A stretch of 53,414 nucleotides of DNA, filler included, from Jimgerdemannia flammicorona (Eukaryota): assembly GCA_003990765.1 (NCBI GenBank). It is 3 parts of 3 records of this genome, joined end to end, with 100 filler letters (N's around TTAATTAATTAA, not from the genome) between each part and the next. Parts side by side here need not be neighbours in the genome. Positions count along the whole stretch, not along the records: positions 35,679 to 53,414 come from RBNJ01002430.1; 2 more parts are not named here. The stretch is one strand, 5' to 3'. This document shows, piece after piece, positions 2,050-46,107 of the stretch (position 1 is the first letter of the stretch; every line of letters begins with the position of its first letter). The position numbers and the translations under genes are program-made. The notes under the pieces are model-generated. The model was not told the DNA's origin, did no database searches, and saw only the letters and a list, made by a program, of their open reading frames with translations.

Positions 2050-2312
2050 TGTTGTGTAATTATGACCTTTGTTAGATGGTTTATAATCAAAAAACACTTT
2101 ATAATCAGAATCTCTATTGTTAGGCAATAACCAGTTGCTGTAGTACTTTTGTTGTAGCACTGGTTGCTAGAGATAAGCTAGATATTATTATTTATATTAT
2201 TTGTATTATTTTATATATCATATATTATTAATGGTGACATCATCACTAGGTTACATAATCACTCATTATATGTCATATCTCATCTGTTTGTTCATTCACT
2301 CATTCTATTATA
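2050..2312 (-). repeat. G1 3' LTR (partial, interrupted by LINE A)
   Basis: Aligns by eye with 5300-5568. Begins TATAATAG (from TGTAATAG) immediately after the PPT. Confidence 0.9.
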
Positions 2313-2325
2313 TCCTTCTTCTCTT
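2313..2325 (-). other. Polypurine tract of G1
   Basis: AAGAGAAGAAGGA on the minus strand abuts the 3' LTR start. Confidence 0.8.
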
Positions 2326-3030
2326 AAAAGTCAATATCTTCATTGATTCGAAAATTAAGAACTAGGGAAGAGAAGAGTGGGGAATCCTCCTTCTTATCCA
2401 ACTCAGTATTATTACCATCTCTACCAAAGGTTGCTGATGACTTGATATTAAGAATAAAGAAGTTAATAAGGTTTGAAAATAGTTCTTAAACTGATATAAG
2501 TAGTGGTATAAGAGTTCTCTATCTAATATAGTTGGAGCTATCTAAATAGAGTTCTTGTTCCTTATATCTGAGGATATCTATTTGGATAGATAGTTCTTCA
2601 AAGAGATCAGAGAGGCCTTAGAGTCATTGGTCTGGATTGTCATTCAGAATGGAGCTCTAGTGGAATTCATAGTCAGTGAACTTAAGAGTAATCCAGAAGT
2701 TGGCTTCTTGGGCAATCTTGATCTCCAGTTTATCAATTTTAGAAAAGAAGAGATTCTGGATATCTTTCAGTTATACATAGTTGAGGTTGGAGGTTGCAAA
2801 AGATATATGACATATGATTTGATAGACCTTCTTGGCTAGTCTTTGCTCATACCTATCCAGATTGGTCCAGTCTGAGATCAGATCAATGGATAGGCCTTTT
2901 GTATGTTGAAGAAGTTGATGACTAATTTATATAAGATTAATAGATCTTGGTTTTCTTTTTTTTTAACTTATTGGTATATTTGCAAGAACTGGCCATTCTT
3001 GTCTAGAGTGAGGGCTCTCATTATCATAGC
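2324..3030 (-). pseudogene. Decayed extra ORF (ORF3) between chromodomain and PPT of G1; 5' boundary approximate
   Basis: Minus frame reads YEQRLAKKVYQIICH...NLNYV*LKDIQNL...EANFWITL...ILNDNPDQ*L*GL...VLNFRINEDIDF*, ending at the PPT. The core matches ORF 36559-37377 without gaps. Confidence 0.8.
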
Positions 3031-3369
3031 TGGGAGTTCAAATCTCTTAGAAATAGTATTTCTTATAATTCAAGACAATTTCTAGTAACAATATCTGTCA
3101 TGTAGATGGGCTTGATATTGGGGTTAATATTGTTGACTTTCTTAGATACTACATATATGAAGTATCTATCATCAATAAAGATAAAACAGATGGTATGAAT
3201 AGAGTTGTTCAAATATATTTTACTAAACCTTACTGAATTAGTTTAGAGGAGTTCTTTTTCTGAATATCTTCTTATTAGTAAAATATAGTATTTCTTTTTC
3301 TATAATATTCAGTATTGTATATCTAGATAAATATATATTATCTCCTTTATTTACTATATACTCTAAGTT

Positions 3370-4345
3370 TAGGACTGCAGTTTCTTCTTTTGCTATAGGG
3401 TGAGTATTTCTATATAGTTCTGAAGAGTTTTACATATATTCTTCAATACTTCTTCTTTTTCTCAAGTAGCATCATAGATGGAGTAACTCTTCTACTTAAT
3501 GAGGAAGAACTACTTAATATTTGTAGACCTTGTGGTCAAGTACTTCCTCAATTTCAAATTCCTTATAATTATTGATCCTAATTAGGGGTAGCATTAGAAC
3601 TATATACTTAGAAAATAGATTCACATAATAGTCCACCAGTTGACTGATATAGAACACTGAGTATACTTGAATATTATAGGAGAGTTATAACTTGTAGTTG
3701 ACTTTACTGACTTTTTCTACAATATTATATAGTCTAATTCTCCTTATATAGAGTTTTTTAACTAGTTGTTATATCAGAGTATCTAGATAGAGATGATCTG
3801 TTCTAAGCATAACTATGTTACTAATATTATAAGAGACTGTTTTTTGCTTTAAGTTGGTATACTTAGTCTGATAGTTCTGTACTTTTATGAGAGTATATCT
3901 TATTATTTACATAAGATCAGAAATGGTCTCAGTCAGATCTTAGACTAATTTTGTAGTAGTGCTTAGAGTTTTTAAATATTGACCATAGTTTAGAAAGAAT
4001 GAAGTCTTCTTCATAGAGGTTTGCTGGCTATTATTGTAGACAAACTCAGCATGGGCTAGGTATTTGTCTCAATCATTTTACTTATAATAGTAGAAGATAC
4101 TAAGTATCTACTTAAGAGTCTTATTAATTCACTCAGTCTGATCATTAGTCTAAGAGTAGTAGATAGTAGAGAACTTCAGCTTAATTCTATAGAGAGAGAA
4201 AAATGTCTTCCAGAAGTTACTGGTGAACCTTGCATCTCAGTCAGATATAATAGTGCTAGATATATCATATAGTCTAAATACTTAGTTGAGAAAGATTTTA
4301 GCAATCTCTAGTACTCTCATATCTTGATATAGTAGAGGTATAATA
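3370..4345 (-). pseudogene. G1 integrase core/C-terminus + chromodomain (degenerate)
   Basis: IISD*DARFTSNFWKTFF, FSTIYYS*TNDQTE*INKTL, AEFVYNNS, VNYKL*L...VFYISQL, then EFEIEEVLDHK...FLIK*KSYSIYDAT*E (chromodomain ~3400-3560). Confidence 0.9.
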
Positions 4346-4821: not shown

Positions 4822-5568
4822 AGTAATAACTCTTATTTCTACCACTCTCTTATTTTTTGGATAATTAGAGAAATAAGATATTACTTAGAGACTTGGTACA
4901 CAGTATACCAAGAAACCTTCAGTGTGAGAAAGTACTTGCTTAAAAGTAGTTATAATAGTAGTACTCTTCTTATTAACTATAGTTATAAGAGACTTGTTCT
5001 TTGCTATATACAGACTGAATTCACCTTAGAATTCAGGTTCAATAAAGGGTTTACTTAAGTCTTTATGATTTATATACTAGTCTCAGTTCTGGTAGAAGTT
5101 AGTTAAGCTTCTGAAGTTTAGTCAGAAACACTAGAGTCACTTAGATATTATTACTAAGACTCAGAGAAATATATATATAGAGGGAGAACTTGATTCTTAT
5201 ATTAAGAACTAAACTAAAACTATCTTTATTTTGAATAAAAACTGGGGGATATTTATATAAGTTGGTTTATAATTTCTGACTGGTAACTATAGATAAGATT
5301 TGTGATCATAATCTTTATTAGGTAGTTTGTAATCAGGAACACTTTGTAATCAGGACCTCTATTGTTAGGTAATAATCAGTTGTTACAGTACTTTTACTAA
5401 AGTGCCAGTTGCTGGAGATAAGCTAGATATTGTTATTTATATTATTCACATTATTCATTATATTTATTATATATTGTATATCATCAATAGTGATATTATC
5501 ACTAGGTCACATGATTGCTTATCATATATTATATCTCATCTGTTCATTTGTTCACTTGTTCTATTACA
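4822..5568 (-). repeat. G1 5' LTR (~747 bp)
   Basis: Minus strand begins TGTAATAG and ends TATTAC(T/A). TATA-like TATATAAAT lies near 5251-5259. Matches 48454-49101. Confidence 0.85.
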
Positions 5569-27201: not shown

Positions 27202-28203
27202 ATGCCTCCCACCGCCCGCTCAACCCTTTCCTCGCCACCCGACGACGGCGAACCCGCTATCAGCCAACCCACCCTCTTCCTCGCCTTGCCTTCAGACATA
27301 CTCTTTACCATCACAGACAACCTAATCCTTGCCGACCTGTTCGTGTTATCCCAAGTTTCACACGCGTGCCGCTTGCTCTCGCACAAGGCCATTTTCGCTC
27401 GTCATGAATTGGATCTTATTGAATTTTATTCCGATCCGAAACCCAATGCTGCAATCAATCTTCAAGGCTTTCTGCTTTCTACCCACACCACGACCTCCGA
27501 ACCGTATGGCAGTCACACTCTTGACACCACCTTGCTGACGCATATCCACACCGCCATGCTCAGCGAGCAAGTCCGCTACGACGAGGACATTCTTCGCAAG
27601 AATTTGCAAAGCATTGTGACCATCTTGATCAAAGATGGCATGCTGACACGCTCGTCAACTCCGCATCATGTATTCTTGCTGCGAGTTCTCAAATATCTCC
27701 CAACCTATATCAGCCCACCAACTGGGGATAAAGGAGGTCAGCAAAATACACAAGCCCTTGCTACTGTTCGTGACGAAATTCCCAACATCGTGGCGCAAGG
27801 CTTTATGGACTTGCTTAATGACACCCTGGTCGCCGGGCAGCTCTCGGCCCCTGCATCGACCGCGACATCATCCCCAAAATCTCCCGCCGGAACCGCGCTC
27901 ATCTCTTTCGCCCAACGTAAAAGAGCCCACGCACACCTTCAATCTCTCACCCAGTTCCTCTTCACTTGCCACGTGCTACGGCATTCTCAAGACGGATCGT
28001 CGTCCTTCCTTTCAGAAGATTCCGTACTGGCGTACCTCGAGCATGTCTCGAAATTGCTTGATAGCACCGGATGTGAGGAGGACGCGGTTTACAAAATCAA
28101 TGTTTTCAAAAGGGCAATTGCGCAACTGCAGAAGTTGTCATCGACTCGTTTGATGGAAGCGCTGAAGGAGCGGTTCCCTGAGGTGGCGGATATATCGGAG
28201 TAG
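27202..28203 (+). CDS. F-box domain protein, 333 aa, single exon
   Basis: N-terminal FLALPSDILFTITDNLILADLFVLSQVSHACRLL fits the F-box consensus; uninterrupted ORF. Confidence 0.8.
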   Translation: MPPTARSTLSSPPDDGEPAISQPTLFLALPSDILFTITDNLILADLFVLSQVSHACRLLSHKAIFARHELDLIEFYSDPKPNAAINLQGFLLSTHTTTSEPYGSHTLDTTLLTHIHTAMLSEQVRYDEDILRKNLQSIVTILIKDGMLTRSSTPHHVFLLRVLKYLPTYISPPTGDKGGQQNTQALATVRDEIPNIVAQGFMDLLNDTLVAGQLSAPASTATSSPKSPAGTALISFAQRKRAHAHLQSLTQFLFTCHVLRHSQDGSSSFLSEDSVLAYLEHVSKLLDSTGCEEDAVYKINVFKRAIAQLQKLSSTRLMEALKERFPEVADISE

Positions 28204-28342
28204 ACGCTAGATGAATTGGCTGGTTATGTTGGGGGTTGGTGTAGTTGGTATGACGTCAGTCATGAGGCGTAAAGATAAACAGTCACTGCCCCTATATATA
28301 AACGCCCTTGCCCCTCTGCCCTTTCCCTTTTCGCTGTCTGGA

Positions 28343-29057
28343 ATGACCTCCGGCTATTCATCTGCTGACAACCAGAAACGCACAATGAATATCGTCGCCG
28401 ACATCTCGTCCCTGGACGAAATGGACCAACGACGCAAAGGGGTGCGTATGCGTTCGACAAAAATCCACCTTCCAAAAATAAACAGGTCATTGGGTATCTT
28501 CGTTGCCCTTAAACTCAAACAATGTCTATAATGGAGGCCACTCCAGTCGGGGCTCTAGTACTTTACGCGATTCAAATCCTCTGACAACGTTCCCCCCAAA
28601 TCGCACAGCCGTCTACAACTTTCGCATCCGCTTCTGCAACCTCTACGACCTCCCTAGGGGGGGCGGCAACTACGTCTTCACTCTCCTCGTCGTCCGCTGC
28701 ATCATCTTCGCATGACAAATCTGTTATCGATTTCGCTTCCCTCGACATATCCGCTCTAGAAAAGTACCAACATGCGTTCCGTGTGCAGACCAAACGCGTC
28801 CGTCCAACTATGCAGGAGCTCACACGGGCCGTTGCCGATCACTACCGGCAGGCGAACCTCGTGGATGGCGAAGAGACCGAACAGGAATTGCTGACACACT
28901 TTGTTTGGCGTGTGCGGGGAGATAGTGAGTATCTTTGTCTTTGCCTTTGACATCAAAGTCTAAAAAAGGACATCCGTCTCACGTTTCTGTCTCTATCCGG
29001 ATTGTTCCACCAGCACCAGCCATGAACACAGGTCTCCTGCGTTCCAAACACACGTGA
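28343..29057 (+). CDS. SAP30: SAP30-like Sin3-binding domain protein (~152 aa); exons 28343-28441, 28609-28924, 29014-29057
   Basis: IDFASLDISALEKYQHAFRVQ...ELTRAVADHY...ETEQELLTHFVWRV resembles the SAP30 Sin3-binding domain. Introns are in phase. A TATA (~28293) and TGACGTCA (28251) lie upstream. Missed by the ORF track. Confidence 0.75.
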
Positions 29058-29479
29058 TCTCTCTGCTTAACGACCAATGATGATGTAATTTATTACAATC
29101 GTGCATATTTCTTCACCTTTGTATATAGTTGTTTCAGAAGTTTAGTTGATCGGAAATTGTGTGCATGCTTTAGGGACGCTGTGCCCACTTCGAATTTTAG
29201 CATTTTCATAATAATTCTTAACGCTCCGCAGCACAATCCATTTGCTACCATTATATGCCTTCCTAATATGTTTTGTTGTCGATATTTAATTTAATTTATT
29301 TATTTATTTTATCATGCAAGAGATCTACGGTGAGAAAAAAAGAAATTCTACACGCAGTTTACCAGACTGTTTATATTATAGGTGTATTTCATGTTCACAC
29401 TATTCAATAGTATCATATATTATTATGCAAAACGAAACATACTAAATATGTTACCCAGTCAGGTTCATATATCAACGTC

Positions 29480-32400
29480 TCACGTGCGGCGATTCCTCCT
29501 ATCGGCATATGTCCGTCTGTCATGCGGGTTTTGACCGATCAAAGTGGGCGACAATGGTCGGAGGGAATGTCGAGTAGCGTTGGCAGATCCGAACTGGAAA
29601 ATGAAAGTGACTGGTTAAGCTTCATGAACAGTGCAAAATGATTCTCCAAATGTGATTAAGCAGCGTTACATACTGAGATAGAATCAGGATTCCCTTGTGC
29701 ACGATGGGGCAGGATGTTTCCAAAGTTGCTTCTAATATCTGCTGCTGAAGACATTCACGAAGTTCGAGCATGTCCCAAACGTAAAACGGGTGCCCATGGC
29801 AAGCGAACGGTATCGTGTCCCTAATGATCTACAGCTGCAAATCCAGCATAAATCTTACCTAATGTATCGGTAAATAACTGTTGGACCACCCTTTCGTTCC
29901 TAACCCTTCTGGGAGATTGCACTGAAGTTCCGGTACCACTCGTAGGTGTTCGTCCGGGGCTGGAATTACCAGATACCAAAGTTGAAATCGAGTTATGATG
30001 ATCAGATGAGAAGACATGTCGGATCTCGCTATGCAGATTATCGCGAACAATGTCCGTCCGAATAGTAGGATTTCATGAACTTACCTCGTCGTGTTTCGCT
30101 TCGCCTCGACATAAGTCTTCCAGATGAGAAATGCCTTTCTCTTCTTGGCTTTGTCGGCCCACGTATCCGCATATATCTATGTTGTTATAAAGCAGCGGAC
30201 ACATAACAATTCAATGCTGATGTTACGAATATCTTTTCCTTGTTAAAGAGTCTTTAGTAGATGCCTACAAAATTAGAAGCACACTCACCAACTTCCTCTC
30301 TTTTTGAAACACCCTTTCCTTCAGCGCCGCCTTCCACTTTCCCCATGTCATCCTTACCAACCGCTCTCTTGAAAACGTGGCCGTCCTCAACATTTCATGC
30401 AAGTTATCAACGGGAATTTTAGTATTTCCTCTTGTCCTCAGTCGAAATGGCCCAGCAAGTGTTGAAATCGTGGCGTTCTGGGGACGTTGCATCACATACT
30501 TCACTTCCAGACGGCGCTCGTCAGCTCGGCTTTGCCAAATCGTAAATGCTTCGTTAAGGAGGCTACGGAAGTAAATGGTGTCGGCTTGCGACGCATTTGT
30601 GACGATGATGAATAATGAACAAAGGGGATAAAGATTACTACATGCAGGCTATAGGATTTTACATACCAATTCTCTGTGATGTCTTGCTTCTCCATAGGTT
30701 GAAATGCCTCGCTATCAAGTGCCGTTTTCCTACATCACGATTACCTGACGCCCGCTCATACCAACGCAACAGCACCTGCCGCGAGAATCCATAATATTTG
30801 AAAGCTGTTCTTTAGGTTCTCCGTAAAATAGATATACGTACGAACATACTCACTGCTCTTTTTATCGAAGCCACCTCCCTCCTTTGTTGCTTCGCCTCAC
30901 TTCGGTTTGCCCAAATATACCAATACTTTCTCGCAAACTGACGATTGCGCGCATCCTCCAATCGCTCGAGACTAGTTGTCAACTGCGGCAAATTCACTTC
31001 AGATTGACTGAGTAAGCGAATAACTATTTTCTGTTGCCAACGAGTTAGGTAATTCCGGACAAGCGTTTTCATTGGCCTGGATGGAATGCCCAAAACATCG
31101 ATTCCACAATAGGAATAAAATTTAAGTCAATCTGATATCAAGTTAAAAAATTCGTGATGACAACCAAATGTGTAGACCTTGCTTTTATGCTATTAGCAAA
31201 TGACATAGCTTGCTGCTCCATCGCTCGATACTAAAAATAATGAGATCCAAATCAATACATAATACATAGCAGTAATCTCGAATTCACTTCCAAAGATTTG
31301 CATGCCTTTTCCTGTCGGCCTCTCCACTTATCCATCGCGCTGCGAAGCAAACTTAACGAATGAAACATTCGCGGATTTGTAAAATCTTGTGAAGTGTCAA
31401 TGTATTGGGTGTCATTGATCACAGCCGTGCGCATTGAGTTCATGGAATGTTTGTGCGTACCTATTGCTGACGATGTAAATATGGGTGAGGTGCCCGTAAG
31501 ATGCGCAAAACCTTTCAGTTTAAGATATCTCGATTGTGTATTAAAAATCAAAATCAAAATCAAAACCCTCCAATTTAGGAAGCTGAAGACCTTCAAATTT
31601 TGTCCGCATCGTCCTTTCCTCCAATTCCGCCATGAGTGACTCGCTTTCGAGAACCTTTCTCCATCGTTCCAAGACAGCCTTTAAAAGACACAATCGGTAC
31701 AGTTCATTGGCTACCTCGTTATATTTTCTTTTCAATTCCATCCGATGCCTCCAAATCCTCCATGCTACCATAGCCATCTTCCCATCTCTCTTCAAATAGT
31801 CTAAGTCCATACTTCTCCCCAATGTCACCATCACATTGCCTTCCAACGCAATACGGATTCCAAAGGTTCCTCCAAGCTCTCTTTGTTCGTCAAACTTCCT
31901 AGCTAAGTCTGTCATCTCCCATCGCGTTTGTGTAATGCCTTTCCATTTCGTTAGCCCACGCGAGAGCACTCGCCGCTCATGCAATTTGACGGCCCTCTCC
32001 ACATGCGCAGAACATACTGCCCACTTGTATTGCCATGCGCTAAAAAGACGACGAATTTTTGACTTTCTGTACAATATAACAGCCTGCTTCTCTTGTCGGT
32101 GCTGATACGTCATCTGCCAAATCCAAAGACGCCAAGCGTTGTCGAGGTATGCCTTATCCAGACGGAATTGAAATTCGACTTCAAGGGCACGAACGTGACG
32201 TATTTTCCGCGAGTCCTTTTGAAGCCGTTGGAAAAAATTCCGTTCCACTCTTAAAACATCATATGTTGAAGCCAGCAATTGGACGTGCTTATTCCACCGG
32301 ACATTGATCCGCATTTTCGCAAGGCAAATCTTGGCGAGACTATCGGCGGTAAGCTTACTGCTATCGTAATGTCTGCTCAGAGCGGTAAGGTGAACACGTG

Positions 32401-35232
32401 ATGCTTTTCAGATAACAGATTCGACAAATACAATTTTGAAAACATAATACCTATTCCACTCAATTATATTGAATTTCTCTCGGTAACCTTTCAGCCAAAA
32501 GTACATTGTTCGCTCTAATATTCCGGATGAAAAGAAAAAAAAGAAAAAAGAAAAATCAGCCACAATTCAAGGGTGGTGAACTGTTTGAAAACCAACAGTT
32601 AGGCTGACCTTTCAATCTTTTCTCGTAGAATTTCTGTGCCGTATGGTCTCGCCTCGATAACTCAAGTTGCTTTGACCAGGTGTGCCATGATTTTTTGAGT
32701 AACACGTCTTTAAGCTGACGAAGTACCCGAAGGCTCTATATTCAGGAGGAAGCAAAAGTAAATCAAAATCTGTGTAACCTAATGAATCTGAGAACGCGTA
32801 CGTCGGTGTGGGTGTGTATTGAGTGTATTATGCGTGTGCCAGCGAGAGACTCACCTGTGACGAATCCCTCCACGCAAGAAACAATTGTTTCGTAGTTTCT
32901 GTCGACCGTTGCTTTGTGAATCGCTTCTCCTGATGAAAAAAAAAAAAAAAAGAGTAAAGATACCTCCTTTCCTTAAGTGCGCCAGTGGGCTCGAAATGCT
33001 AATTATATTGCATGCAGAAAATCAACGTTAAACGTACCATTGGCACCAAACGACCAATTTTCAATCTGCCCTTCAACTCCTCCATGATCCATTGACACCG
33101 TCTTCGATCCGCTGATTCCACGAACATTTGATACACGACTTTCAGGGTGGCTGATGCTGTGGCAACTGAATGCCATGCTCGCATTATCCTTCGCAAATTC
33201 GCTATGCAGTGCAGTGGACGATGTTTTCAGAAAAAAAATACATGCTTTCTAACAGGCAAATAGGCATTCATACCAGTACCTTGCATTAGCTCATCCTGGA
33301 ACATTTTTATCCGCCTTTTCTGAGTATCCTGTCGCTCCAATCTAAGTTTCCATGCATATAGGCGTCCTCTGATTTGTGATGAATGTGATCAAGAGTCGAT
33401 TATTTTTTTATCGGATGGGCGTCAGAAAGTGCTTTACAAATCAACTCGCAATAAACCTTAGAAGACTTCGTTCGTGGTGCCGAGCTGCTAGGTGTTTCTG
33501 CTCAGAAAGGTCATTGACGCGAATTCTCCATTCACAGAAACAGGAACCCGACAAAATCTATAAGAGAGAGAGACGGGATGTCGATAAACCATACAAATAT
33601 TGAAGGTCGAATCTATCAGCCATACTTGATTTTAACCTTCTTCCGTTGAGAACCAAGGATGTTTTCACGAATCCTGAGCCGTCGCTGCCACTGTGCTTGT
33701 TCCTTCCAAACTGACGTGTGAGCAATATCAAGTTATCCCTAATCGTCGATGATACAAGAAAAACGATAATAATAATAATAATCACCATGGAGTATGCTGA
33801 CCAAACCTTTCTTCTGCCGTTCTTCCATCCACTGCACAATCTGCTTAGCTTGTCTGGCTCGCTTTCTTCTCTCTATCCTACAATAAACACATGCCACGAC
33901 GAAATGCTTTAACTTCACGTCTTCCTTTCGCCAATGGAATCTGATAATTTTCATGATGAAACCATTGAGAGACTGTGAGAGCGACCTGGCACGCCAACCG
34001 AAAAAGGACTGGCCAAGGAAGAACAACCCGCGGGTCATTTCGGCCTTCGCAGCCATTTGGCGATGATAAACGAGCTGCGTTTGCCATCTACTAAAAGAAT
34101 GCTGGAGGAGGTGTGCTTGATACGAATTCTGGTTGGAGATCGGTACAGTTCAGCATGACGACATATTTTCAGCGCAAATAATTTCTTAGAGATAACGCGC
34201 GAAGAAGATATTACATCGGCAACAGAAGTCATTGCCTTGTATCTGGAGTATTTCCATTTCCATTCACAGAGCATTTTTCGCAGTCGATTTTTCTGACGTA
34301 CAGCACAAACAACAGTGTGCTTCGCTAAGGATTAATTGAAAGATTATAGTTGTACTGATGAAAATGCAAACTTCTCCAAATTTCAAGAATAGATGCGACA
34401 CTATGAAGCAATAAACACCTACCTTCTAATGTTGCCATCAAACTCCTATACTTGGTGTGAATATATGATCCCAGAAGAGCGAGTTAAGGGGAAAACAAAA
34501 TTGACATCGTAAAACTATTCTTTCACTCAGACAAAAGCTATATAGAAATACATAGGCCGCCTGCTCGCTCCAACACCAAAAAAAGATAACCCTTGAAAGT
34601 TAGGTAATGTATGGAAAGGATATTTCCCAAACCATCAGCGCGACTTGAACCGTCCTTTGATTTCTTTCCTGCTCAAAATTTCGTGTCCTGGTCTGGGTCA
34701 GCCATAAACGGAACGCACTTGAGATTGCCTGACGCTCGGATATGATCTGATGCCGCCGCAATATTAGCTGGCGCTGCTCCTACAGAGGACACAGATACAT
34801 TAGCGCGATACTGTCTCATATCATCATCACATCTATGGAACTGGAATTGTGAGAAGAAACCAATCAGTTTCACGTACCATCCTGGTCAGCGTTTGATTCC
34901 GCCACTGTGCGTACAATGCGCGCAGCAGACGGCGTTGCTGAAATCGATCAAAGCGTATCGCCAGGGAATGAAGTGTATCGAGCGCGCTTTTACTGTTGAA
35001 TAATAGAAAATTACCAAGTATGTGATACAAGTCAATTTCTCTCGATTAAATATTTGATCGCAATACTACATTCAATGAAGCGCAGAAAATATGCATTGGA
35101 ATTGCCTGCAATGCCATTGGTTTAAACAGTTTCTTGCTAAATGGGTTTTCCGCCAACTGTCCGCCAACTTCTTATCAGTGGCTTAAAAACAAGGGAAATC
35201 CTGTAAATAATACACAAATATTGCCAAAAAGG

Positions 35233-35578: not shown

Positions 35579-35678
35579 NNNNNNNNNNNNNNNNNNNNNN
35601 NNNNNNNNNNNNNNNNNNNNNNTTAATTAATTAANNNNNNNNNNNNNNNNNNNNNNNNNNNNNNNNNNNNNNNNNNNN
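35579..35678. other. Artificial contig-joining spacer (N44-TTAATTAATTAA-N44)
   Basis: Same 100-nt construct as 17741-17840. Confidence 0.95.
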
Positions 35679-35947
35679 TGTTGGCAAGTTTGGCTGCACC
35701 AGCATCAGTAATGGTGGCTGCATTGAACTTGTCTCTGGCAGGTCCTCTGAGGCTGACTAGTAGAAGGGCCAATTGAGCATCCACACCAAGGGCTCGTATG
35801 GCGGCGAATTGTTCAAAGTCTTCAATGAAGGTCAGGATTGACTCTTCAGTAGTATATCCATAGAATGTGGGGGGATGCATTTCCATCTTGTCTTGAATTC
35901 TTGCAGGGGTAACTCTTGTAGTCAGGGTAGTTGTTGTGGGGGTTGTT

Positions 35948-36075
35948 CGTTTTTCAGCTTGAAAGTGAGGGATTCGTCTTGAATCACCAGCCAATGGGCA
36001 CCAAGTTGTCACGTTTTTCAGCTTGAAAGTGAGGGATTCATCTTGAATCACCAGCCAATGGGCACCAAGTTGTCA
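35948..36075. repeat. 64-bp tandem duplication covering the LTR terminus and PBS of G3
   Basis: 35948-36011 versus 36012-36075, one mismatch (CG versus CA). Confidence 0.95.
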
Positions 36076-36446
36076 TGTAGTGGTCGCTGAGTCCTTCAAA
36101 TATGCCAGATTCTCTTCAAGGTATATCTCTTAGACTAACTCAAGTTTGTTATAAGCAAGTTCTTATTGGAGTGCCTTCCCAAGGTCTTATAGTCCTCAAA
36201 CTTCTTATCTTTAACTATCTTGTTATCTCTTAGATTGCTTGCAAGGAAGTGTGTGTAAGTGAAACTGGAACTGACTGACTTTATTTCAGAGGAAATAAGA
36301 GAGGTATTTATACAAAATATAATTCAATGGTTGCTAAGATATAAAGCTAAATATAAATTCCGATAACTAAAACTACTGAGTTCCAGAGCTGGCATTATTT
36401 AGTACCATATCAAAATACCAGTGCTGGAACAATTTCACATCACCTC

Positions 36447-36549
36447 AGAATACCAGTGCTGGCATTATCCAGTGTTACATGAGAATACCGGTGCTGGCAT
36501 TATCCAGTATTACATGAGAATACCGGTGCTGGCATTATCCAGTGTAACA
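36447..36549. repeat. Three 35-bp tandem units at the U3 end of the G3 LTR
   Basis: AGAATACC(A/G)GTGCTGGCATTATCCAGT(G/A)TTACATG at 36447, 36482 and 36517; degenerate partial units at ~36383 and ~36412. Confidence 0.9.
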
Positions 36550-37618
36550 AAGAATTTTTTAGAGCAGAAAGTTCAGGACCATGGGGGCTTCATCATCATC
36601 ATCATCACTGAAGGAGATGAGATCCACGAATTCGTCATGCAGGTCGCACATCTCGCATACTTCGGGTATGTTGTGTGGGATGACGTCATCGCCGATGACA
36701 TCATCATGTTCGGCAGGGAAATCGGGGACAAGATTTGGAGCTCTCCAATCTATGAGGTTCTCTTCCACAAAATAGGGGACAAATGTGGGGTCTTGGGGGG
36801 ATCTAACTCAGATGCTTGGGCCTTGGAATACTGAGATCAATCCTTGCAGGAATTGGTCTGGGTTGTCCTGAAGGATGGGGTGCCAGAAGTCTTCTACTTC
36901 TTCACTGTTGAGGGTGATGGTGGACTGGGCTTCTATAGCTACCCTGGCTTCTAGTGCATTGATGCGGCGGGATGACAGGTCTCTGAAGTCTGAGACTCTA
37001 ACATACTCCAAGTTGGGGATCGACCATAGTGTATGCCTGAAGATCTGATGGATCTTCTTTGCTGTCCTTGCCTCACATAGGTCTATGGGGGTGGCATCTT
37101 GTAGCTCTTGAGGGCTGGCCTGTGGGAACTCCCAGCAGAGGAGGTTTCCTATTTCATATTCCTGCCACATTTGGAGGCATTTGGTGGCAATGGTGATCCT
37201 TGTTTCCATTTCATGGTGGTAGAGGATAAAGTGATAAGGGTCTGCAGTACTCAGGTTGACACTAGGAGTCCTTCTTGAGCGGGTCCTCATGGCTCTTCTG
37301 ATGTCTTGAAATATCCTTTCCTCGACTGAGATACCTTGATGATTCCTTGACCTTGAGGTTTGGTGGGCAGCAGGCATTTTGTTTGTGGTAAGTCTTTGAG
37401 CTATTTTGGGATTGGGGTTCTTGTTGGCTGCTGCTACTGTGGTTCCTTGATCCTTCTTTTATATTCTTCAGGATGCTTGTGCTGTGGTCACAATGACTCA
37501 CAGTTGGTCATTGTTGCTCATCTCGCATGCCGTATGATCTTCTTATACTCTGATCTGGTGGCTTGTAAAGAAAGGCTGTCTCCTGTGCTGATGTCATCAT
37601 TCCAGGGTCACCATTACA
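36550..37618 (-). mobile_element. Element E4: LTR-like start (TGTAATGG) at the break in the G2 integrase, carrying the ORF3 homologue; interrupted by G3
   Basis: G2 integrase stops at KQAYFVP exactly where TGTAAT begins. TGACATCAG motif, TATAAAAG at 37456-37463, and more CpG than adjacent G2. Confidence 0.6.
36559..37377 (-). pseudogene. Retroelement accessory ORF of unknown function, 272 codons with one in-frame TGA (36808-36810)
   Basis: ORFs 36808-37377 and 36559-36768 share a frame. CAAACAAA-ATG context; basic N-terminus, acidic C-terminus; homologous to G1 2324-3030. Confidence 0.8.
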
Positions 37619-39872
37619 GTGGGTACAAAGTAGGCTTGTTTGCTCAGATAGTCCACAAATACTATAATAGCATCTTATCCTACCTTAGTCTTAGAGAGCT
37701 AGACAATGAAGTCCATAGTAATTTGGTTTCAGTTATGACTAGGAATGGGTGAGGGTTGCAGAAGTTCTATGTGTAGCTTGTTACTACTTTTAAATCTTTG
37801 ATATATCTTATATAAGACCACAAAATCTTTAATATTCTTGATTATCTTTAGCCAGTAGAACTCTCTTGAGAGAATATGTAGGTCTTCTCAAAACCAAAAT
37901 ATCTTGCTGTAGGAGTATTATGGAGTTTCTGCATAATATTGAGCTACAGAGCATTATTGTTAAATATAACTACTCTATTATGATTTCTATAAATAAGTCC
38001 ATTATAGTAATTGAATCTTTTGGACATTTGTCTCATGGATTCTGAGACCTCAGCCTCTGAGTCTTAGTAGAATTGAAGAAAATTCACCAGGAGGCTATTT
38101 TGTTAGTAGCTATTCTTAATTATCTGAGTAAGATCTTCAATTATCTCAACTATGAAGACAAGTTCATCTTCTATATACCTAGAGAAACTATTAGTCATAT
38201 TTGGTTTTGTCTGGGATATTTTGATTTCTATATCAAATTTGATAATGATTTCTATCCAACAGACTTGTCTGTAGATCAGCATAGGCTACATATGTGTGAA
38301 TATACTACAGAGCATAGTAATTAGTATAGACTATAAATGGTTGTCTTAGGAGGAAGTAGTGCTATTTCTGAAGTATAGTGATAATGGCCAGGAGTTCCTA
38401 CTTATGGATAATATACTGAATCTTAGCTGGCTTGAGCTTTTGGGAGAGGTAGGCTACTAGACAGTCTTTTTGACTAAGTACTGCCCCAATGGCAATATTA
38501 GAGGTATCTGTGATCAGAGTGAATAGTCTAGTAGGATTTGGTGCAATTAGTACTAGAGCCTCAGTAAGAAGTCTCTTGAGGTAGTCTATGGCCTGGGTAT
38601 ACTCAGGAGTCTATTTAGTCTTAATGTTTACTTCTTTGTAAGTTAGGCTGATTAGTGAGACTGCAATAGCAGAGTATCTTTGGATAAATCTTTGATAATA
38701 ATCTACAATATCCAGAAAGTACTGAAGTAGCTTGAGGGTAGTAGAGATAGAAATATCCTTGAGGGCTGATACCTTTTGAAGATCTATATTGATATCTTTA
38801 GCAGAGATAATATATTCTAGATACTTAATCTGATCTTAATTAAACTTACACTTACTCATCTTAGTATAGAGCTGGTGTTCTTATAGAAGAATCTGCCTGA
38901 GGTGGGTATAGTATAGTTCTACTGTTTCACTATAGACTAATATATTATTAATATATACAAGAACACAAATGTTGAGCAGTGGTCCAAAGATATCATTCAT
39001 CAGATACTGAAATATTACTGATATATTGATCAAATCAAAAGGCATGACTCAGAACTGATAGTATCCAAACCATATTCAGAAAGCTGTCTTCTTGATGTCC
39101 TTTTCATTAATAAGAATCTGGTGGTAGTCATTTTGTAAGTCCAATAGGGAAAAAGTCTTGGCCTTGAAGATCTAGTGTAATAACTTGTCAATTCAGAACA
39201 AGGTATACTGATTCTTAATAGTGATCTTGTTGAGGGCTCTATAGTTAATGCACATTTACAGAGAGCCATCCTTCTTCTTGACAAACAGAATGGAGGCTCC
39301 AAATAGAGAATAGCTAGGTTCAATATATCCTTAGACTAATAGTTTAGTCAACTCATCCTTAAGAATCTTGAGTTCAGGTTAGGCTAAATAGTAGATACTC
39401 TTATATGGAGATTCAGATCCTGGAATAAGATCAATTCCATATTGGATTTGACACTTGGGTAGAAGTCCTTGGGATTTCTAGAATATATCTTGGAATTCCT
39501 TAAACAGTTCTTGAGCTTCTGGTGAGATTGGACTACTCAGAGCTTTAGTGACTTCTTACATAGTACAAATGAAGTATATATTTTCCTTTTTATAAGAGAG
39601 TCTCTTCATTTAAATAGCAGAGATAATTTTGATTTCTTGGTAGTTAGTATCTTCTTGAGGTAATAGAGTGATCTTTCTGCCTTTATAGATCAGGTTAATC
39701 TTGTTAGTCCTCCAGTTGATGTCTGGGTTGTACTAGGTCAATCAGGCCTTTCCTAAGATAATGTCTTATCTGAGAGATCTATAATGCTGAAGTCCAACTT
39801 CTCTTAGTATTTTCCAATCTTAAGCAATAGATCTTTACAGATTTTGATCAATAGTATAGTCTTATTATTACT
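37619..39872 (-). pseudogene. G2 pol remnant: protease C-half, RT, RNase H, integrase zinc-binding and start of core
   Basis: CINYRALNKITIKNQY, FSLLDL, KKDIKKTAF, VMPF, CVLVYINNILV (YIDD mutated), IKYLEYIIS, LITDTSNIAIGAVL, ELLAIITILQK, KLHNTPTARYFG, TMDFIV. Confidence 0.9.
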
Positions 39873-39886: not shown

Positions 39887-42800
39887 ACCTTTCTTCAGTA
39901 ATATTCAGATTATACAAACTTTAGACAATACTTCAATTGATGTTTTTAATAAAAAGATGATAACAATATAACAAGTAATGAGCAATCTGGGGAGTGTATG
40001 AGGTAGGGCAGACTCAGTACCTTTGACTGGCAGTATGTGAGGAGAGGTCAAGGTGCAGATTTGGGAATGCTAAGTACTACTCTAAGAGACTGGTGGGCTG
40101 GTAGTAGTGGAAGAGGTGGTTCAAGGTAGCAGGGAATGAGACATTTGACCTTTGCTGACAAGGTCAAGATAGGAGCTCAGGCAAAGGGACTAGAGAGATG
40201 GCTAGAGATGGGGAAGGAGAAGGAAGCTGCTAGGGGGAAGAGGGGAGCTCCTCTGAGGGGCCAGAGTAGGGGGGCTGGCAGTATAATAGCTAAAGGAGTA
40301 ACTGCTGATAGGAGTGTGATGGGCAATCTGGAAAAAAATCTAGATGGGACTGCTAATGGTAGACTGAGCCATGGAATGGACATGAGGCCTAGTGACCTTG
40401 CTGATGCTGTAATAGGGCTAGTGGTGGTACTATTACTCAAGAAGTCAAGATCCAAATTTATAGTCATAATGTACTTCCAAGGCCTAGCAGTAATGGCAAA
40501 GATAGTGCTAGGGCTCCTGGCAAAGAAAGTGAAAGGCATGACCTCAGTGAAGCTTCTGAAGAAGCTTGAGTCAATAGAGATAGACTTTGAGGAGGAGGAG
40601 GTATTGTTGGAGATATTGGAGAAAGGGCTGATATTTGGGGGGATGGCAGTTCCAATAGTGAGGTGTATATACTGAGACCCTCAGATAGTGCAACTAGTGG
40701 TAGCTAACTTGTTGACTATCAAGAAGGAGAAGACTAGGCAACTGGTTGTCAATGTAGTCAAGAAGTATAGAGATGTTGTGGATATTAGATTTAGAGTCTG
40801 GGAGGGGATAGAGCTCAAGACTAGAGATGTGGATATCAGAGTGAGGCTGGTAGAGAAGGAGAATACTAGAAAAGGGAGGGATTAGTCAGTAGTACTGAGG
40901 TGGGGACCTGTGGAATACAAGGTATCAAGGGTGGTGGGAATACAGGAGGAGAAGAAGAATTTGCTAGAGGTACTAGAGAATATGGTGGGAACAGTCAAAA
41001 GGAGGTAGAAGGCTTGGGAGAAGTATGAGGCTAGAATAGTGATTGGGGTGGTCAATAGTAAGAAGGTGTAGATGGACCAGGTTCTCTGAGAGAAGGCACA
41101 GAGGAGGTAGATTCAGAAGGAGCTATTGGTGAAGTTAAGAGGGGAGATGGTGGAGGGGTCCACAGTTGAAGATACTGGTTTGCAAGTGAGTGCCTGGACA
41201 GAAGAGGAAGAAGTGACCCTGGAGGTGATCCAGAGAGCAGAAGAAGGATCTGGAGTGAGTGTGGTCATAGAAAATATAGAGATGGTTAAGGGGAGGCACT
41301 CTCAGTATAGAGTACCTAGGGAGGCTACAGGTGAGGAGGAACTGCAGGATGTATTGGAGGAGGATTGAGAAGAGTCAGTAAGGAGAAATACTGAGGGAGG
41401 GCAGGTAGAGGAGGTGAAGGGGGTGGCTGAGAGAGTTAGGGAAGCTGTGAATGAAGAGAAGTGGCTGTAGAAGATACTGAAGAATATGATGGCAGAGAAA
41501 CTGAGGAAGGAGGACTTTCAGGTACTAAGTGAGAGGTACTGGAGTGAAATTCTATAGAGTGAGGAGGTGCTGAGGAAGATCTGTAATTAAATTATAGTAG
41601 TACTACTGGAGGCTGAGGTCTATCAAATGGATGATAACAGAGAGACAGTACTTAGGGCAATTGTAAATAATTGCATAGCTTACATATGGGAACCAAAGAA
41701 GAGACTGGAAAAGTGGTAGGTAGTATGTGAGAAATACCAGTCAGAGATGGAGACTGTGGATGAGGTAGACTATCAGAAGATCTTGATAGCACTGGAGACT
41801 CAGCAGGGGGAGGCAGATGAGATTGAAGTAGAAAGAAACTTGGATCTTACAGGTGATAGGATAAGTATAGAATTATATATAAGATAGACTCTCTCTTTCA
41901 CAAAATATTATTAACTATGAACAGTACAACTAGAATCTTCTCTTTGAATATCAATAGACTGAGGAGTATAACAAGATGATGGAATCTCTTTAGCTGATTG
42001 AAAGAGCTAGATACAGATCTTTTCTTATTATAGAATGTGGGTTATGATGCAGACTTGGACTTACTGGACTAGACAAGGGAATGGGGTGGTATAGCAGTGT
42101 GGTAGGGTCAGATGAATATTCTGGTCAAGAAGAGGGTAGGGAACATTGGAGACATTGAACATTAGGGGAGCTGATTAGTGTGGGAAGTGTAGAGGAGGTC
42201 AGATTAGAGCCCCCTGACTATGAGATCATACTATTATCTAGTAGAAAGGAGGGAGTGAGTGGAGTGGGTGCAGAGTCTGCAAGAGGCTAGTGTTTTAGTG
42301 GATATGGGAATTGACTGTCTGGGGGGTAACTTTAATATGATGTGTAATAGCAGGTTAAACAGAACTAATGAAGGGAGGGATATGGCAGACAGGAGTAAAG
42401 AGATAGAGGACTGGGAGGAGATTGAGAGACTGAGTTCTTTGGTGGATACTAGGTGACTTGGGTGAGCTGATCATAGAGTTTATACTTACTGAATAACAGG
42501 ACTGGGATCCTGAATAGACTGGATATTAATGGCTGAGTACTGGGGTACAGATGTTTGGAGTGAGATTGAGATAGTCTAGTATCCTTGATCTGACCACTGG
42601 GGGGTTGCTGGGTAGAGAGAGGTCCAGGGGTAGTGGAGATGGGTCTGGATATTAGTATCTGAATACTGTATTACTGGAGGATAGTACCTTGTAGAGAGAA
42701 TGAGTGTTTGAGGTTAACACTAAGATAGTTGGCTGGAGGGTACAGGGGTTGGAGATTGGAGATTGGTAGTGGCAGTTGAAATCTGATGTTCAGAAGTATT

Positions 42801-45649
42801 AGAGTGAGATAGAGAGAAGAAGGAGGGTACAGCAGAGGCAGTATATTAGGTGGGCTTCACAGAGACTGGTGAATCTACTAGAGCAGTGGGCTGAATTATT
42901 AGAAAACTGTAGAGTAGAGGACTAGAGGATTCAGAGGATCCAGCAGGAGGTGAAAGAACTAAAGGGGCTGCTGAGACAGGAGGAGATATTATAGGTAAAA
43001 GGACTGGTGACTTAGCTGAGGTGGTAGAGTGTAAAGGAGGGAGAGTGGCCCACTAGATACCTATTAAGACTGTTATAGGCAAGAAGGACAAGACAGTGGT
43101 GGAAAGAGGTACTGGATAAGGTAGGAGAGATGATGACTGAGATACTGGGGATCTTGGGCCTATTGCAATCTCATTGAGAATAGCTATAAATTAAGAAAGA
43201 GGAGGGAGAATATGCCTTAGATATTAAAAGGCAGTTGGAGGATTGATACCTGGCCCTGGCTGTGGGCCTGGGCAAGCTTAGAGGCCTGGTAAGTGAAGAG
43301 GAGATATATTGGATCTTAGTGATGATGAGTATGAGGATGGCCCCTGGCTCTAGGATTTTTGAAAGAAGATGACCAGCATTGAGGTTATGTTAGAGGAGAT
43401 AGTATAGATGTATGACAAGGTCATTAGCTCAGAGTCCTGGATTGGGAGACAGTGCCTGGGACTTATAGCTCTGTTGTATAAGAATAAGGGAAGAAGAAAG
43501 AATTGAAAGAACTAGAGGCTAATTATGCTTCTGAATATGGATTGCAAATTGGTGACAAAGATTTTGGTAGCTAGGCTGCAAGGAGTGGCTCAGCAGATAC
43601 TAAGAGCTAAGCAAAGGGGATTTATTAGTGGTCAGTTGATTTGAGATGAGATGATATAGATCTATGATATTATTGAGAGTACTTACACAGCTAGGGTTGA
43701 TGGCTGACTAGTCTTTCTAGATCAAGAGAAGATATATGCCAGAGTTTGACATATATGGCTGAAGGGAGTGTTGAAGAGAGTGGGGGTTCTACAAGGGTTC
43801 AGAAGATTATTGATTTATCTGCTGGAGGAGAGTTGAGTAGCTATTATAGTAAATGGACATAGGGAAGAGTCCTTCTCTCTGGGTAGAGATATGCTACAAG
43901 AAGATCCACTGTTGCCAATTCTCTATGCCCTCTCACTAGAGTCTTTGCTGGACAAGATTTAGTACAAAGTTGGAAGTTTGAATATTTTAGTAGTAAACTG
44001 GAAGATTGGGGCCTTTACTGATAATATGGTAGTTGGGCTGGGCTCTATGAAGGATATGACAGCACTAAAGAGTGTAGTGGAATGGTATGAGGGGTGTTCA
44101 GATACTAGGCTCAATTGATATAAGTATAAGACTCTGGCTTTAGGTAGAGAAATAGTTGGAGGTGATATAATCAGAATAGTGGTTCTGGCTGGTAAGATGG
44201 TCTACTATTTGGAGATTTATTTTTCAGTATATAGTTTCTTGCTACCTCAGGACTGGTGGGAGCAGTGGCTACTAGCTTGGAGGAATGTCCTCATGAGATA
44301 GAGAGGCCAGTACATCTCTCTGGTAGAGAGAGTAATAGTACTGAATATATACTGGCTACTGAAGCTGTGATATATTAGATATCACTTGGACTTTCTGGTA
44401 TAGGTAGTCAAAAGGTTGTTAAAGATAGCCAGGTTGTAGATTTGGGTAGAGCAGAGAAGCCATATCAGCTGAGAGGTATTGATACTACTGGTAAATAGAG
44501 GTGAGCTTGGCCTGGTGGACTTTACCAAGTATTTGCACTGCTTAAGAGTATAGTTACTGAGGTGAGTGAGTGAATTCAGGGATCAAGAGTGGGTGCCCCT
44601 TATGCAGAGAGTGTGGAAAGCTCAGTATTCTCCCTAGGGCATAACTGGTGACCTGCTCTCTCTGGTAGTTCTCAAAGAGAGTAAGAAGATATACTATCAA
44701 GAATTCTAGTGAGAAGTAGTGGATGACACCTACTGCATTGGTCTCTGATAGAAAGGTGATAAGGGAGAGGAGAAATAGAGACCACAGATGTGGAGATGGG
44801 ACCACCTACTGTTAGGAGGTAAACTGGTGGAGGATTTTTAACTAGAAGATAGCATAAAATATCTATAAGAGCATAGAAGAGATTTGTGGTCAGAAGTATG
44901 GCAGAGGTGGGGATTGGCAAAGAGTGAGACTGGAATAGTATCTGGTCTTAGTACAAGCAAGTGGTAAAGTGGCTCCCCCCTAAGTTCTGGGTGGTATGAT
45001 TGCAGATTTTGAGACATAATATCATACTGAACTACTAGTTAGGATATTTGGTAGAAGGGGGTGCAGTGGAGTGTGAGGAGTGTCTGAATATTGAGCAGAT
45101 GAGAGGTATGGTACAGATCCCTGAGCATTGGCTTGAGGAGTGTAAGGTTCTGAGAGATTACTAGTAAGTCATTAAGGACTAACTAGAGCTGTGATCTTTG
45201 GGAGGAGAGGAGAGGGGGAGGTGGGGTGACCTTCAGCATAGGTTAGTAGGAGGAGTTGGAGATGAGTGGCTGACTTTGGGGTGGGCTCTGGCTATTTGGA
45301 TTAGGCTTGCCAGACATTGGCTCTATATATTTGAGGATGGTCAGTAATTAGCAGTTGGGGTCAGAGTTGCAAAATAGAAGTAGTTATTGCTGGACATCTT
45401 GAATGGGTGATGGCAGGAGTGGAGACCTGGAGGGGATAGCTATAGAAGACTTGTGAAATATATTTCTGAGAAGAGCAGGGAGAGGGTTGAGGTTACTGGG
45501 GGGTTGATGAATCTCAGAAGAGGGAGAGAGAAAAGAATGGTAGGGGGGTCTATATGGGATTGAGTAAAGGGTATATCAGTATCTTTGTATTAATATAACA
45601 TAGATTAAATAATAATTGGTAATAAAAGTAGAAGTCCAAGTGACTATAA
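39887..45649 (+). mobile_element. LINE copy D, full length, with 14-bp target-site duplication AAAGGTGATACTTC (39873-39886 / 45650-45663)
   Basis: Family 5' end, ORF1, APE, RT (LDQEK, FTDN), C-terminal CEEC...HWLEEC, 3' GTGACTATAA. Removing the element plus one TSD restores the G2 protease. Confidence 0.93.
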
Positions 45650-45663
45650 AAAGGTGATACTTC

Positions 45664-45790
45664 TTTTTTCAGTAGCTTGTCTGCTTTGGACTCTAATCCT
45701 CTTAGTAGTCTGATATAGTTTCTAGTAGCTCTACTATCTAGTAGGACATTGATATCCTGTCTGTAAACTTGGTCTGTGAATTTGATGCAA
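45664..45790 (-). pseudogene. G2 aspartic protease N-half
   Basis: QDINVLLDSRATRNYI corresponds to LLDSGAT with G>A changes. Confidence 0.8.
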
Positions 45791-46107
45791 CTGTCTTCCT
45801 TCTTAATAGTATTGAGCTCTTTGTTCTCATTGTCCTAGTTACTATTAGTCTTCTTGAAGTTAGTCTCTTCCTATTCTTTACAAAGAGAGTGGTCTGGTTT
45901 GAGTTCCTCAGTCTGTTGGGCTTGGTGTCTTTCAGAATTGATTTTGAAAACTTTGGAGAGGCATGTATGAGATTTATCAACATATTCCATGCAGTATATT
46001 TAAATAAAATAAGGACATTGTCCATATAGTACATAACTATCTACAATTCTCTTATACCAGTTTTTATTATCTTTCTTTATTATGATAACCTTTTGACTAG
46101 AGAGTTT

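Follow-up and report, generated by a model that had tools for sequence, protein, structure and literature searches.

What is the open reading frame (ORF) that runs along the minus strand of a 53,414-nucleotide stretch of Jimgerdemannia flammicorona DNA (NCBI GenBank assembly GCA_003990765.1) from 37377 to 36559, next to decayed Ty3/gypsy retroelement sequence, and where in a retroelement does it belong? The stretch, called the window throughout, consists of three contigs joined by N44-TTAATTAATTAA-N44 filler linkers at 17741-17840 and 35579-35678, and its third contig (RBNJ01002430.1) starts at 35679, ~900 bp downstream of the frame in the frame's own sense. A sequence-only reading had described the frame as an accessory gene of unknown kind shared by two divergent long terminal repeat (LTR) elements, occupying the env position in one of them, and had proposed tblastn, dN/dS and AlphaFold/Foldseek as checks. 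We find that the frame is a genuine gene of a new protein family and that, as the explanation that probably accounts best for the whole locus, it is the accessory gene of a Ty3/gypsy lineage, which in a young copy lies inside the LTR and has expression signals of its own. The coordinates of all features are collected in Table 1.

The frame has 272 codons with one TGA, as first described: 271 sense codons read on the minus strand and a single internal TGA at 36810-36808. Searched against the window by tblastn, the ORF gave one other match, at 2878-2579 (minus) in a decayed element that we refer to as G1. The alignment is ungapped, as the sequence-only reading had seen it by eye, with 40 of 100 residues identical and E 7e-15; the runner-up matches had E 0.88 and worse. 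This similarity was also the sole match when 35680-39500 was compared with 2000-8000 by tblastx, and a hidden Markov model (HMM) of 11 family members, run on the six-frame translation of the window, recognised exactly two places, 37314-36562 (8e-128) and 2926-2516 (1.9e-33). The weaker resemblances noticed earlier (NLIDWRA/NYIR and VLNF) fall within or slightly beyond the HMM match. At the DNA level alignment is confined to the core, 37085-36688 with 2859-2430, where it scores 139.5 (transitions scored mildly) versus 59.4 ± 7.1, maximum 72, for 20 shuffles.

Of the six matches at E of at most 0.001 that an exhaustive phmmer search of 1,835,955,588 representatives returned, five are credible, being proteins of 138-342 aa that stand alone; the remaining one (P0005), a repeat protein of 920 aa, is probably spurious, being matched in 7 short stretches to residues 109-160 only. 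A word-indexed search of 5.8 billion proteins gave 6 matches among 310 scored candidates, and a profile search of 5.8 billion proteins gave 12. The stand-alone relatives number about a dozen, with identities of 27-90%; they end in an LNF-type C-terminus, as the accessory ORF does, and lie on contigs of 567-4848 bp from JGI or ENA, where 'hypothetical protein' is the only name given. One of them, P0007, is 271 aa long at 73-76% identity, starts and ends as the window ORF does and is free of the internal stop. The metagenome scan found one locus only, L001, which holds an intact 323-codon version, and none of the viral contigs among 78 pattern matches carries the accessory ORF. In the nine-row alignment A4 the protein starts with MP in all seven rows that have the N-terminus, the other two rows being shorter gene calls. 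The part of the literature that we searched holds no report of this protein family.

The frame appears to be under selection. Between the window and L001 (NG86, 271 codons) dN is 0.33 and dS 1.72, giving a dN/dS of 0.19, which is not near 1 and comes from one pair with saturated dS; by part, dN/dS is 0.12 in the core and 0.32 in the tail. We also compared the window with four public runs (X1, X2, X3 and X5), whose contigs were aligned to 35680-38200 at an identity of at least 85%. Among the variant sites, the 15 best-supported places listed inside the ORF (another 212 lie on the compared stretch) comprise 6 that are synonymous, 7 that change a residue and 2 in the internal stop. Because the best-supported alternative letters at the TGA both yield sense codons in the run contigs, the stop looks like a defect of the window copy or of a minority of copies. 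The conserved start codon, the stand-alone relatives and the dN/dS together bear out the proposal of a selected, element-borne accessory gene, and suggest that purifying selection maintains it in two element families or more.

A host gene captured by retroelements, or merely standing beside them, would account for an ORF that has no known retroelement domain and whose predicted relatives stand alone on short contigs. It is nevertheless very unlikely, since three independent DNA contexts (G1, the young copy and L001) put the ORF beside LTR signals, and since from 131 to 2243 contigs per run, in several identity classes, align to the compared stretch in all four runs, as a multi-copy repeat would give. 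Moreover, 1.84 billion representatives yielded five credible clusters, all lacking a functional name, which is unlike a conserved host gene; the same figure does not support the suggestion, in the sequence-only reading, that proteins of this pattern abound among the hypothetical proteins of Glomeromycotina.

The protein combines an Arg-rich N-terminus (residues 1-45, isoelectric point (pI) 12.0, 9-10 Arg+Lys), a helical core of ~150 aa and an acidic disordered tail (residues 201-271, pI 4.05, 21 Asp+Glu) with conserved hydrophobic motifs; the conserved motifs of the family are PYFVEEN.IDWR, DLI.F and LNF. The highest 19-residue Kyte-Doolittle mean was 0.64-1.07 in the 4 members tested, with no transmembrane helix, and the basic, hydrophilic N-terminus is not a signal peptide. 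Both the earlier description of the product, basic at one end and acidic at the other, and its judgement that the frame is not env-like thus agree with these values. Pfam has no family for the ORF, MetW, VopS_N, ATG5_HBR and NpmA appearing at E 0.026-0.1, under their cut-offs; a sequence search of the PDB gave 0 matches at E up to 10, and the best feature score in the ESM Atlas was 0.83, with a best TM score of 0.33, which is chance level. Structure prediction and Foldseek, as proposed, found no fold match for the ORF product. The full-length AlphaFold2 (AF2) model is poor (pLDDT 49.5) and gave 0 of 238 Foldseek rows at E of at most 0.001. A core model, built from 160 aa of L001 with a 13-row alignment, reached a pLDDT of 76.4 and a pTM of 0.66 in the best model and is predicted to form eight helices and a small hairpin; with it, Foldseek gave 0 of 174 rows at the same threshold, and a wide VIA search gave 0 of 48,161 chains at Z of at least 5, the best Z being 4.6. 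DNA-binding proteins, many of them helix-turn-helix, make up about half of the 50 VIA rows listed, and six rows are ParB/SopB/KorB/VirB/Spo0J DNA-binding domains at Z 3.0-4.0; all lie below the level that the tool treats as noise with helical models. The possible helix-turn-helix resemblance of the modelled core is a lead only.

In G1, the position of the gene relative to pol and the LTRs could be read from the remains of one element. The C-terminal part of the integrase core was read from the translation and is followed by the SH3 domain; a chromodomain-like stretch at ~3560-3400 was recognised by eye, Pfam giving no Chromo match at E up to 1. The resemblance of the two G1 LTR copies begins exactly at TGTAATAG (5568) and at TATAATAG (2312), and the purine tract AAGAGAAGAAGGA precedes the 3' copy only. 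An LTR extending beyond 2312/5568 was rejected: the flanks upstream of both starts show no significant likeness (84.5 versus 63.4 ± 11.5 for shuffles, maximum 104). The 3' LTR is cut at ~2050 by a GC-rich undecayed repeat. The LTR of G1 starts after the ORF, and the accessory gene therefore occupies, in sense, the span from the pol stop to the purine tract with the 3' LTR, that is, the env position. This is where the sequence-only reading had put it, following pol and ending at the purine tract, the chromodomain part of that description being by eye only.

The decayed ORF becomes recognisable at 2926, in sense and ~310 bp past the pol stop, which is what a C-terminal extension of pol reached by read-through or frameshift might leave behind. 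Such an extension is scarcely credible: the MP start is found in every row with an N-terminus, an ATG-free leader with its own TATA box precedes the young copy of the ORF (see below), and stops separate the ORF from pol in G1 and in the young copy alike. The exhaustive search, too, gave no credible long protein, its 920-aa match being a repeat protein aligned over 52 residues. A search for fused longer forms found none, which is weak evidence, and the relatives stand alone with a start of their own; the frame is thus, as had been supposed, no extension of pol.

The second locus, E4, is not the single element that it had seemed. Its decayed pol gives Pfam matches to RVT_1 (1.2e-15) and RT_RNaseH_2 (7.5e-22), followed by integrase motifs read from the translation, in the Ty3/gypsy order of reverse transcriptase (RT), RNase H and integrase (the pol of the young element lies outside the window). 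The integrase is cut short at 37619, after ~40 residues of its core. At the junction 37619/37618 the decayed side, with a GC content of 0.34 and 33 stops in 560 codons, meets the ORF side, with a GC content of 0.45 and 1 stop in 272; from 37618 onward the GC content of 0.45 is that of the host genes. The decayed E4 pol element and G1 belong to one old family, the leader/gag region of G1 being 81% identical over 1202 bp to 47920-49102, where the 5' part of E4 lies (49102-47920). G1 itself is a deletion derivative in which this leader/gag region is fused at ~4289 to the C-terminal part of the integrase core. E4 is a composite of an older, decayed pol and a younger, undecayed unit that holds the gene.

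Two statements of the sequence-only reading change with this result. The env position in E4 is lost, as the adjacent RT, RNase H and integrase belong to the older element cut off at 37619. Of the two divergent elements reported to share the gene, the decayed E4 pol and G1 turn out to be one family, and the sharing holds in another form, with the intact gene in a third, younger unit. That E4 might yet be one element, with the gene in the env position of the decayed pol element and a 3' end spared by decay, is highly improbable. Pol and ORF are indeed adjacent on the same strand and share a frame in the read-through translation, but the integrase breaks off 241 bp before the ATG, and the corresponding span of G1 holds the rest of the integrase, the SH3 domain and the chromodomain-like stretch. 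Other copies, as seen in their contigs, part from the window sequence precisely at 37618, GC content and stop density change abruptly at the junction, and a site resembling a primer-binding site (PBS) and an ATG-led open frame follow the LTR signals. A reading of 37600-37560 as still encoding integrase (our own, unscored), prompted by an integrase-like motif in one frame, was dropped, the motif spacing being off by 11 nt and the frame different.

The two old-family copies, G1 at 4289 and E4 at 37619, are broken within ~10 codons of one site in the integrase core, which may be coincidence or a hot spot.

The young unit begins at 37618 with TGTAATGG, which is the terminus of G1-family LTRs with one transition. 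TGTAAT occurs in the window at 0.32 per kb per strand, and its presence at the exact junction base is hence unlikely to be due to chance. At the same base, three X3 contigs (agreement 0.93) and one X5 contig (210 further letters) leave the window for a common sequence, which, read in the minus sense, ends in the purine run AGGAGGAAGA, flush against TGTAATGG. Base 37618 thus has the context of a 3' LTR, a purine tract with conserved element sequence, in some copies, and that of a 5' LTR, foreign decayed DNA, in the window. Just past the ORF stop lie 35-bp tandem repeats, a region that differs by indels and skips among metagenome contigs and is absent from L001, and which would be a variable part of the unique 3' region (U3) of the proposed LTR. 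The block TATAAATA..AATAAA further on was aligned in four LTR copies, those of the young unit, L001, decayed E4 and the 5' end of G1, where TATAAATA lies at 5257-5250. At 36071 the sequence ..ACATGACA ends, 6 of its 8 letters matching the LTR start in inverted form; ACT and then TGGTGCCCATTGG follow. The TG..CA ends, the inverted terminal match and the adjacent PBS-like site suggest that the 3' end of the LTR is at ~36071. As would be seen with a gene of the type of sag in mouse mammary tumour virus (MMTV), the terminus motif with purine-tract context at 37618 lies upstream of the ORF and the TATA box and AATAAA lie downstream of it, with one LTR in view. The simplest reading of the order from 37618 is U3, R, U5, PBS and gag, and it is likely that a younger element integrated into the old integrase and that its 1548-bp 5' LTR contains the gene.

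Contigs that match parts of the young unit (35680-37618) at an identity of 99% or more occur in all four runs, three of which are soil metagenomes of separate studies: 364 in X1, 25 in X2, 33 in X3 and 46 in X5. The young element or its host is therefore present in those samples. Past ~37634 the run contigs offered hardly any cover, a fact to which we attach no weight. That the third contig of the window starts within the young element is unsurprising, since assemblies tend to break in multi-copy repeats. The 64-bp duplication near that end contains a second copy of the final letters of the proposed LTR, of the PBS-like site and of a small hairpin (GATTCA..TGAATC).

The ORF in the young unit also seems to have expression signals of its own. 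The stretch between the TATAAAAG box and the ATG, 37378-37455, is a leader free of ATG, and in L001, too, the same GAATATAAAAG precedes the ORF, with 56 nt of leader that likewise contain no ATG. Beyond the ORF, AATAAA lies ~27 nt after the element's TATA box. This puts it where the genomic RNA is expected to start, or slightly ahead of that point. Judging by retroelements in general, the signal would then be complete only in read-through transcripts.

A competing layout would keep the gene where G1 has it, between pol and a short LTR starting near 36545 (TGTTACAC..); the window copy would then be a 5'-truncated element sharing its 3' LTR with the next element (a tandem pair), or a recombinant, broken at the end of pol. 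We consider this unlikely, while noting that it has the layout of G1 in its favour, together with repeats headed by TGTAA(T/C) directly past the ORF stop and the sequence upstream of 37618 in other copies, which resembles the end of the G1 pol frame (a 30-letter loose end versus 3275-3240, unscored). In the sections of PMC7264820 drawn on here, moreover, sense additional ORFs (aORFs) are usually reported between pol and the 3' LTR. It would, however, need two extra events, a tandem pair and a deletion ending exactly where the purine tract meets TGTAATGG; the ORF stop is followed by CTCTAAAAAATTCTT and then TGTTACAC, with no purine tract before the supposed short LTR; and the direct contact of the undecayed unit with heavily decayed DNA is what a later integration would give.

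Several points weigh against a gene-bearing LTR in the young element. The homologous gene of G1 lies outside the LTR, and the LTR boundary must have shifted to give the young layout; the 35-bp repeats past the young ORF likewise open with TGTAA(T/C)ACTGG (36514, 36479), which could be an ancestral or still-used short-LTR start; and a single event of priming at the purine tract upstream might have produced the window copy. Of the presumed gag, 207 nt precede the end of the contig, which puts a full-length young copy, its LTR pair and its target-site duplication out of reach, and the run contigs, of 100-390 nt, are too short to link the ORF to both LTR ends. The purine-tract context comes from 4 contigs of 2 studies, among the 24 of 146 loose ends of run contigs that are listed, and the placement of the gene within the LTR draws on a single junction together with these four short contigs. 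Pfam gave nothing at E up to 1 for the putative gag frame, nor did tblastn find a significant counterpart to it in the window; the window holds 0 tRNA genes and no tRNA partner for the PBS-like site, and a search for Tf1-like self-priming found no complement of at least 8 nt between the start of R and the leader of the young copy. As to the gene itself, the single pair and saturated dS behind the dN/dS, and the split of the 15 listed variants into synonymous and non-synonymous, which is mild evidence only, count on the same side, as do three of the five core models, at 52-57 pLDDT only.

With the gene placed inside the LTR of the young element, the observations would fit together as follows. 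A Ty3/gypsy lineage carries an accessory gene for a ~271-aa protein of a new family, which in the old family of elements, represented by G1, stands between the pol stop and the purine tract with the 3' LTR. A younger element would then have inserted into the integrase of an old one, its 5' LTR running from 37618 (TGTAATGG) to ~36071, with the whole gene within the U3 of this 1.5-kb LTR, preceded by its own TATAAAAG and ATG-free leader and followed by the TATAAATA and AATAAA of the element. In the course of this, second-strand priming probably shifted to a purine tract at the end of pol, and the gene thereby became part of the LTR. Every LTR, even a solo one, would on this reading be a complete transcription unit for an mRNA of ~1.2 kb, ending at the LTR's own signal.

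Tentatively, the product may be a nuclear, nucleic-acid-binding regulator acting in trans on the LTR promoter of the element or against host silencing. A nuclear trans-acting regulator would fit best because of the Arg-rich N-terminus, the helical core, the acidic tail, the separate expression signals and the site beside the promoter region; an adaptor for RNA export or packaging, or one directed against a host restriction or silencing factor, are the alternatives. It is somewhat unlikely that the young family's long LTR works as a gene complete in itself, with its own TATA box, ATG-free leader, 271-aa ORF and poly(A) signal, the ORF having moved in from the env position by a shift of the plus-strand priming site; every LTR, also a solo LTR that outlasts its element, could in that case keep making a trans-acting regulator that boosts the promoters of the family or counters host silencing.

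Table 1. Coordinates of the accessory ORF, of the retroelement features and of the host genes in the window.
Feature	Position	Strand	Details
Accessory ORF	36559..37377	minus	ATG 37377-37375; 271 sense codons; terminal TAA 36561-36559
TATAAAAG box	37456..37463	minus	79 nt upstream of the ORF ATG; putative promoter
Proposed 5' LTR of the young element	36071..37618	minus	1548 bp; starts TGTAATGG, ends ..ACATGACA; ORF in U3
35-bp tandem repeat	36447..36549	minus	2.9 copies; Tandem Repeats Finder, 94% matches; just past the ORF stop
TATAAATA and AATAAA	36280..36312	minus	TATAAATA 36312-36305, AATAAA 36285-36280; block conserved among all LTRs of both families
64-bp tandem duplication	35948..36075	minus	98% matches; PBS-like TGGTGCCCATTGG at 36067-36055 and 36003-35991
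Putative gag start	35680..35886	minus	ATG at 35886; 69 codons open to the contig end
Decayed Ty3/gypsy pol of E4	37619..39282	minus	RT 39282-38808; RNase H 38610-38292; N-terminal part of integrase
Decayed accessory ORF of G1	2516..2926	minus	HMM 1.9e-33; tblastn E 7e-15
G1 integrase SH3	3813-3627	minus	Pfam SH3_Tf2-1, 9.9e-07 and 1.1e-07
G1 pol end	3238..3813	minus	SH3, decayed chromodomain-like stretch, pol stop 3240-3238
G1 purine tract AAGAGAAGAAGGA	2313..2325	minus	After the last motif of the decayed ORF, flush against the 3' LTR
G1 3' LTR, 5' part only	2055..2312	minus	Starts TATAATAG; 76% identical to 5566-5301
G1 5' LTR	5062..5568	minus	Starts TGTAATAG at 5568; end approximate
Alpha-N-acetylglucosaminidase (NAGLU)	18987-22174	plus	Host gene
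Class II aminoacyl-tRNA synthetase	24137-25639	minus	Host gene
F-box protein	27163-28200		Host gene
SAP30-like protein	28585-28947		Host gene
Sfi1-like protein	~30.3-34.3 kb	minus	Host gene

The remainder of the window holds host genes with short introns (18987-34331) and several other repeats; an Rfam search gave 0 matches. In the decayed old element, upstream of RT, a dUTPase domain (PF00692, 9.3e-20) lies at 46110-46494 on the minus strand and shares the read-through frame of RT, with ~6 kb of another repeat family between the two (~39.4-46 kb). A large repeat family occupies 1-2047, 8000-17740, 40000-46000 and 50500-52900, its decayed copies having a very strong one-strand GC skew of +0.39 to +0.50 per 2-kb interval; its one undecayed, GC-rich copy (0.59) has a 448-codon frame at 2166-823 (minus), with a Gly/Arg-rich part and no Pfam match, and is the repeat that cuts the 3' LTR of G1 at ~2050. 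Inserted into the 5' part of the old element's 5' LTR is an undecayed sequence at 49111-50250 (minus), which ends in AATAAA signals and a run of ~70 A and looks like the 3' end of a poly(A) retroposon; an inverted copy, 81-88% identical, lies at 17855-18638 (plus), at the start of contig 2, beside NAGLU.

How does this gene compare with those of known systems? Plants and animals have supplied most of the accessory genes known from LTR retrotransposons, and for the majority no function is known. Sense and antisense aORFs between pol and the 3' LTR are well described in plants, the env-like ORFs of Athila and Bagy2 being examples of sense aORFs, in the sections of PMC7264820 considered here. Judged by those sections, our gene is like the plant sense aORFs in having the gag-pol orientation, in its G1 position between pol and the purine tract with the 3' LTR, in being kept in different element families and in having no relatives outside elements. 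It is unlike the env-like ORFs of Athila and Bagy2, as there described, in that it has neither transmembrane helix nor signal peptide, is unrelated in sequence and has its own TATA box and ATG-free leader, and the young-copy ORF is apparently inside the LTR, whereas the aORFs treated in that part of PMC7264820 are described for the internal region. Outside plants, additional ORFs common to diverse retroelement types in bdelloid rotifers (PMC5408684, in part) provide a precedent for one accessory family common to divergent LTR elements, although the proteins differ, and the fungal element Boty carries an aORF (PMC7264820, same sections) which, unlike ours, is antisense and encodes a different protein. 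The parts of the rotifer and Boty descriptions that were covered mention no position internal to an LTR. The element crapaud of Podospora, according to the portion of PMC10787394 used here, is a chromodomain Ty3/gypsy element with an LTR of 339-443 bp and two ORFs (gag and pol); the 5' half of its LTR (U3, before the TATA box) is highly variable, and repeat-induced point mutation (RIP) can turn its terminal TG into TA. Our elements resemble it in the variable U3 and in the terminal TG to TA change, found in the 3' copy of G1, and differ from it in that the crapaud LTR is shorter and no LTR ORF is described in that portion.

In the part of the literature that we searched, no LTR element other than a retrovirus is described as having a sense ORF within its LTR. 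Between them, the two copies in the window seem to show the gene once outside and once inside the LTR boundary and would, if the reading is true, be a concrete example of a retroelement moving a gene into its LTR: gene dose would be doubled, expression uncoupled from gag-pol, and solo LTRs would become potential coding units.

Among retroviruses, the sag ORF of MMTV lies within the U3 of the LTR, and nef of human immunodeficiency virus (HIV) overlaps U3; Sag and Nef are mammalian retroviral, membrane-associated proteins. As with these genes, both LTRs would carry the coding sequence in U3, and the genomic RNA would carry it at its 3' end; unlike them, our ORF seems to be preceded by a TATA box of its own that is part of the LTR. 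The sequence and fold searches described above list no match to Sag or Nef, a result with which a relationship would still be compatible. Foamy virus Tas is expressed from an internal promoter, and Tax of human T-lymphotropic virus (HTLV) acts on U3 repeats. By analogy only, our gene resembles Tas and Tax in the basic N-terminus, the acidic tail with bulky hydrophobic residues, the promoter-like box and the tandem repeats in U3 beside the gene; it differs in that there is no homology and the 35-bp repeats are not conserved in L001, and any such activity is putative. The accessory gene is a testable candidate for a retrotransposon-encoded transactivator or anti-silencing factor and, if the reading proves true, would be the retrotransposon counterpart of a retroviral transactivator.

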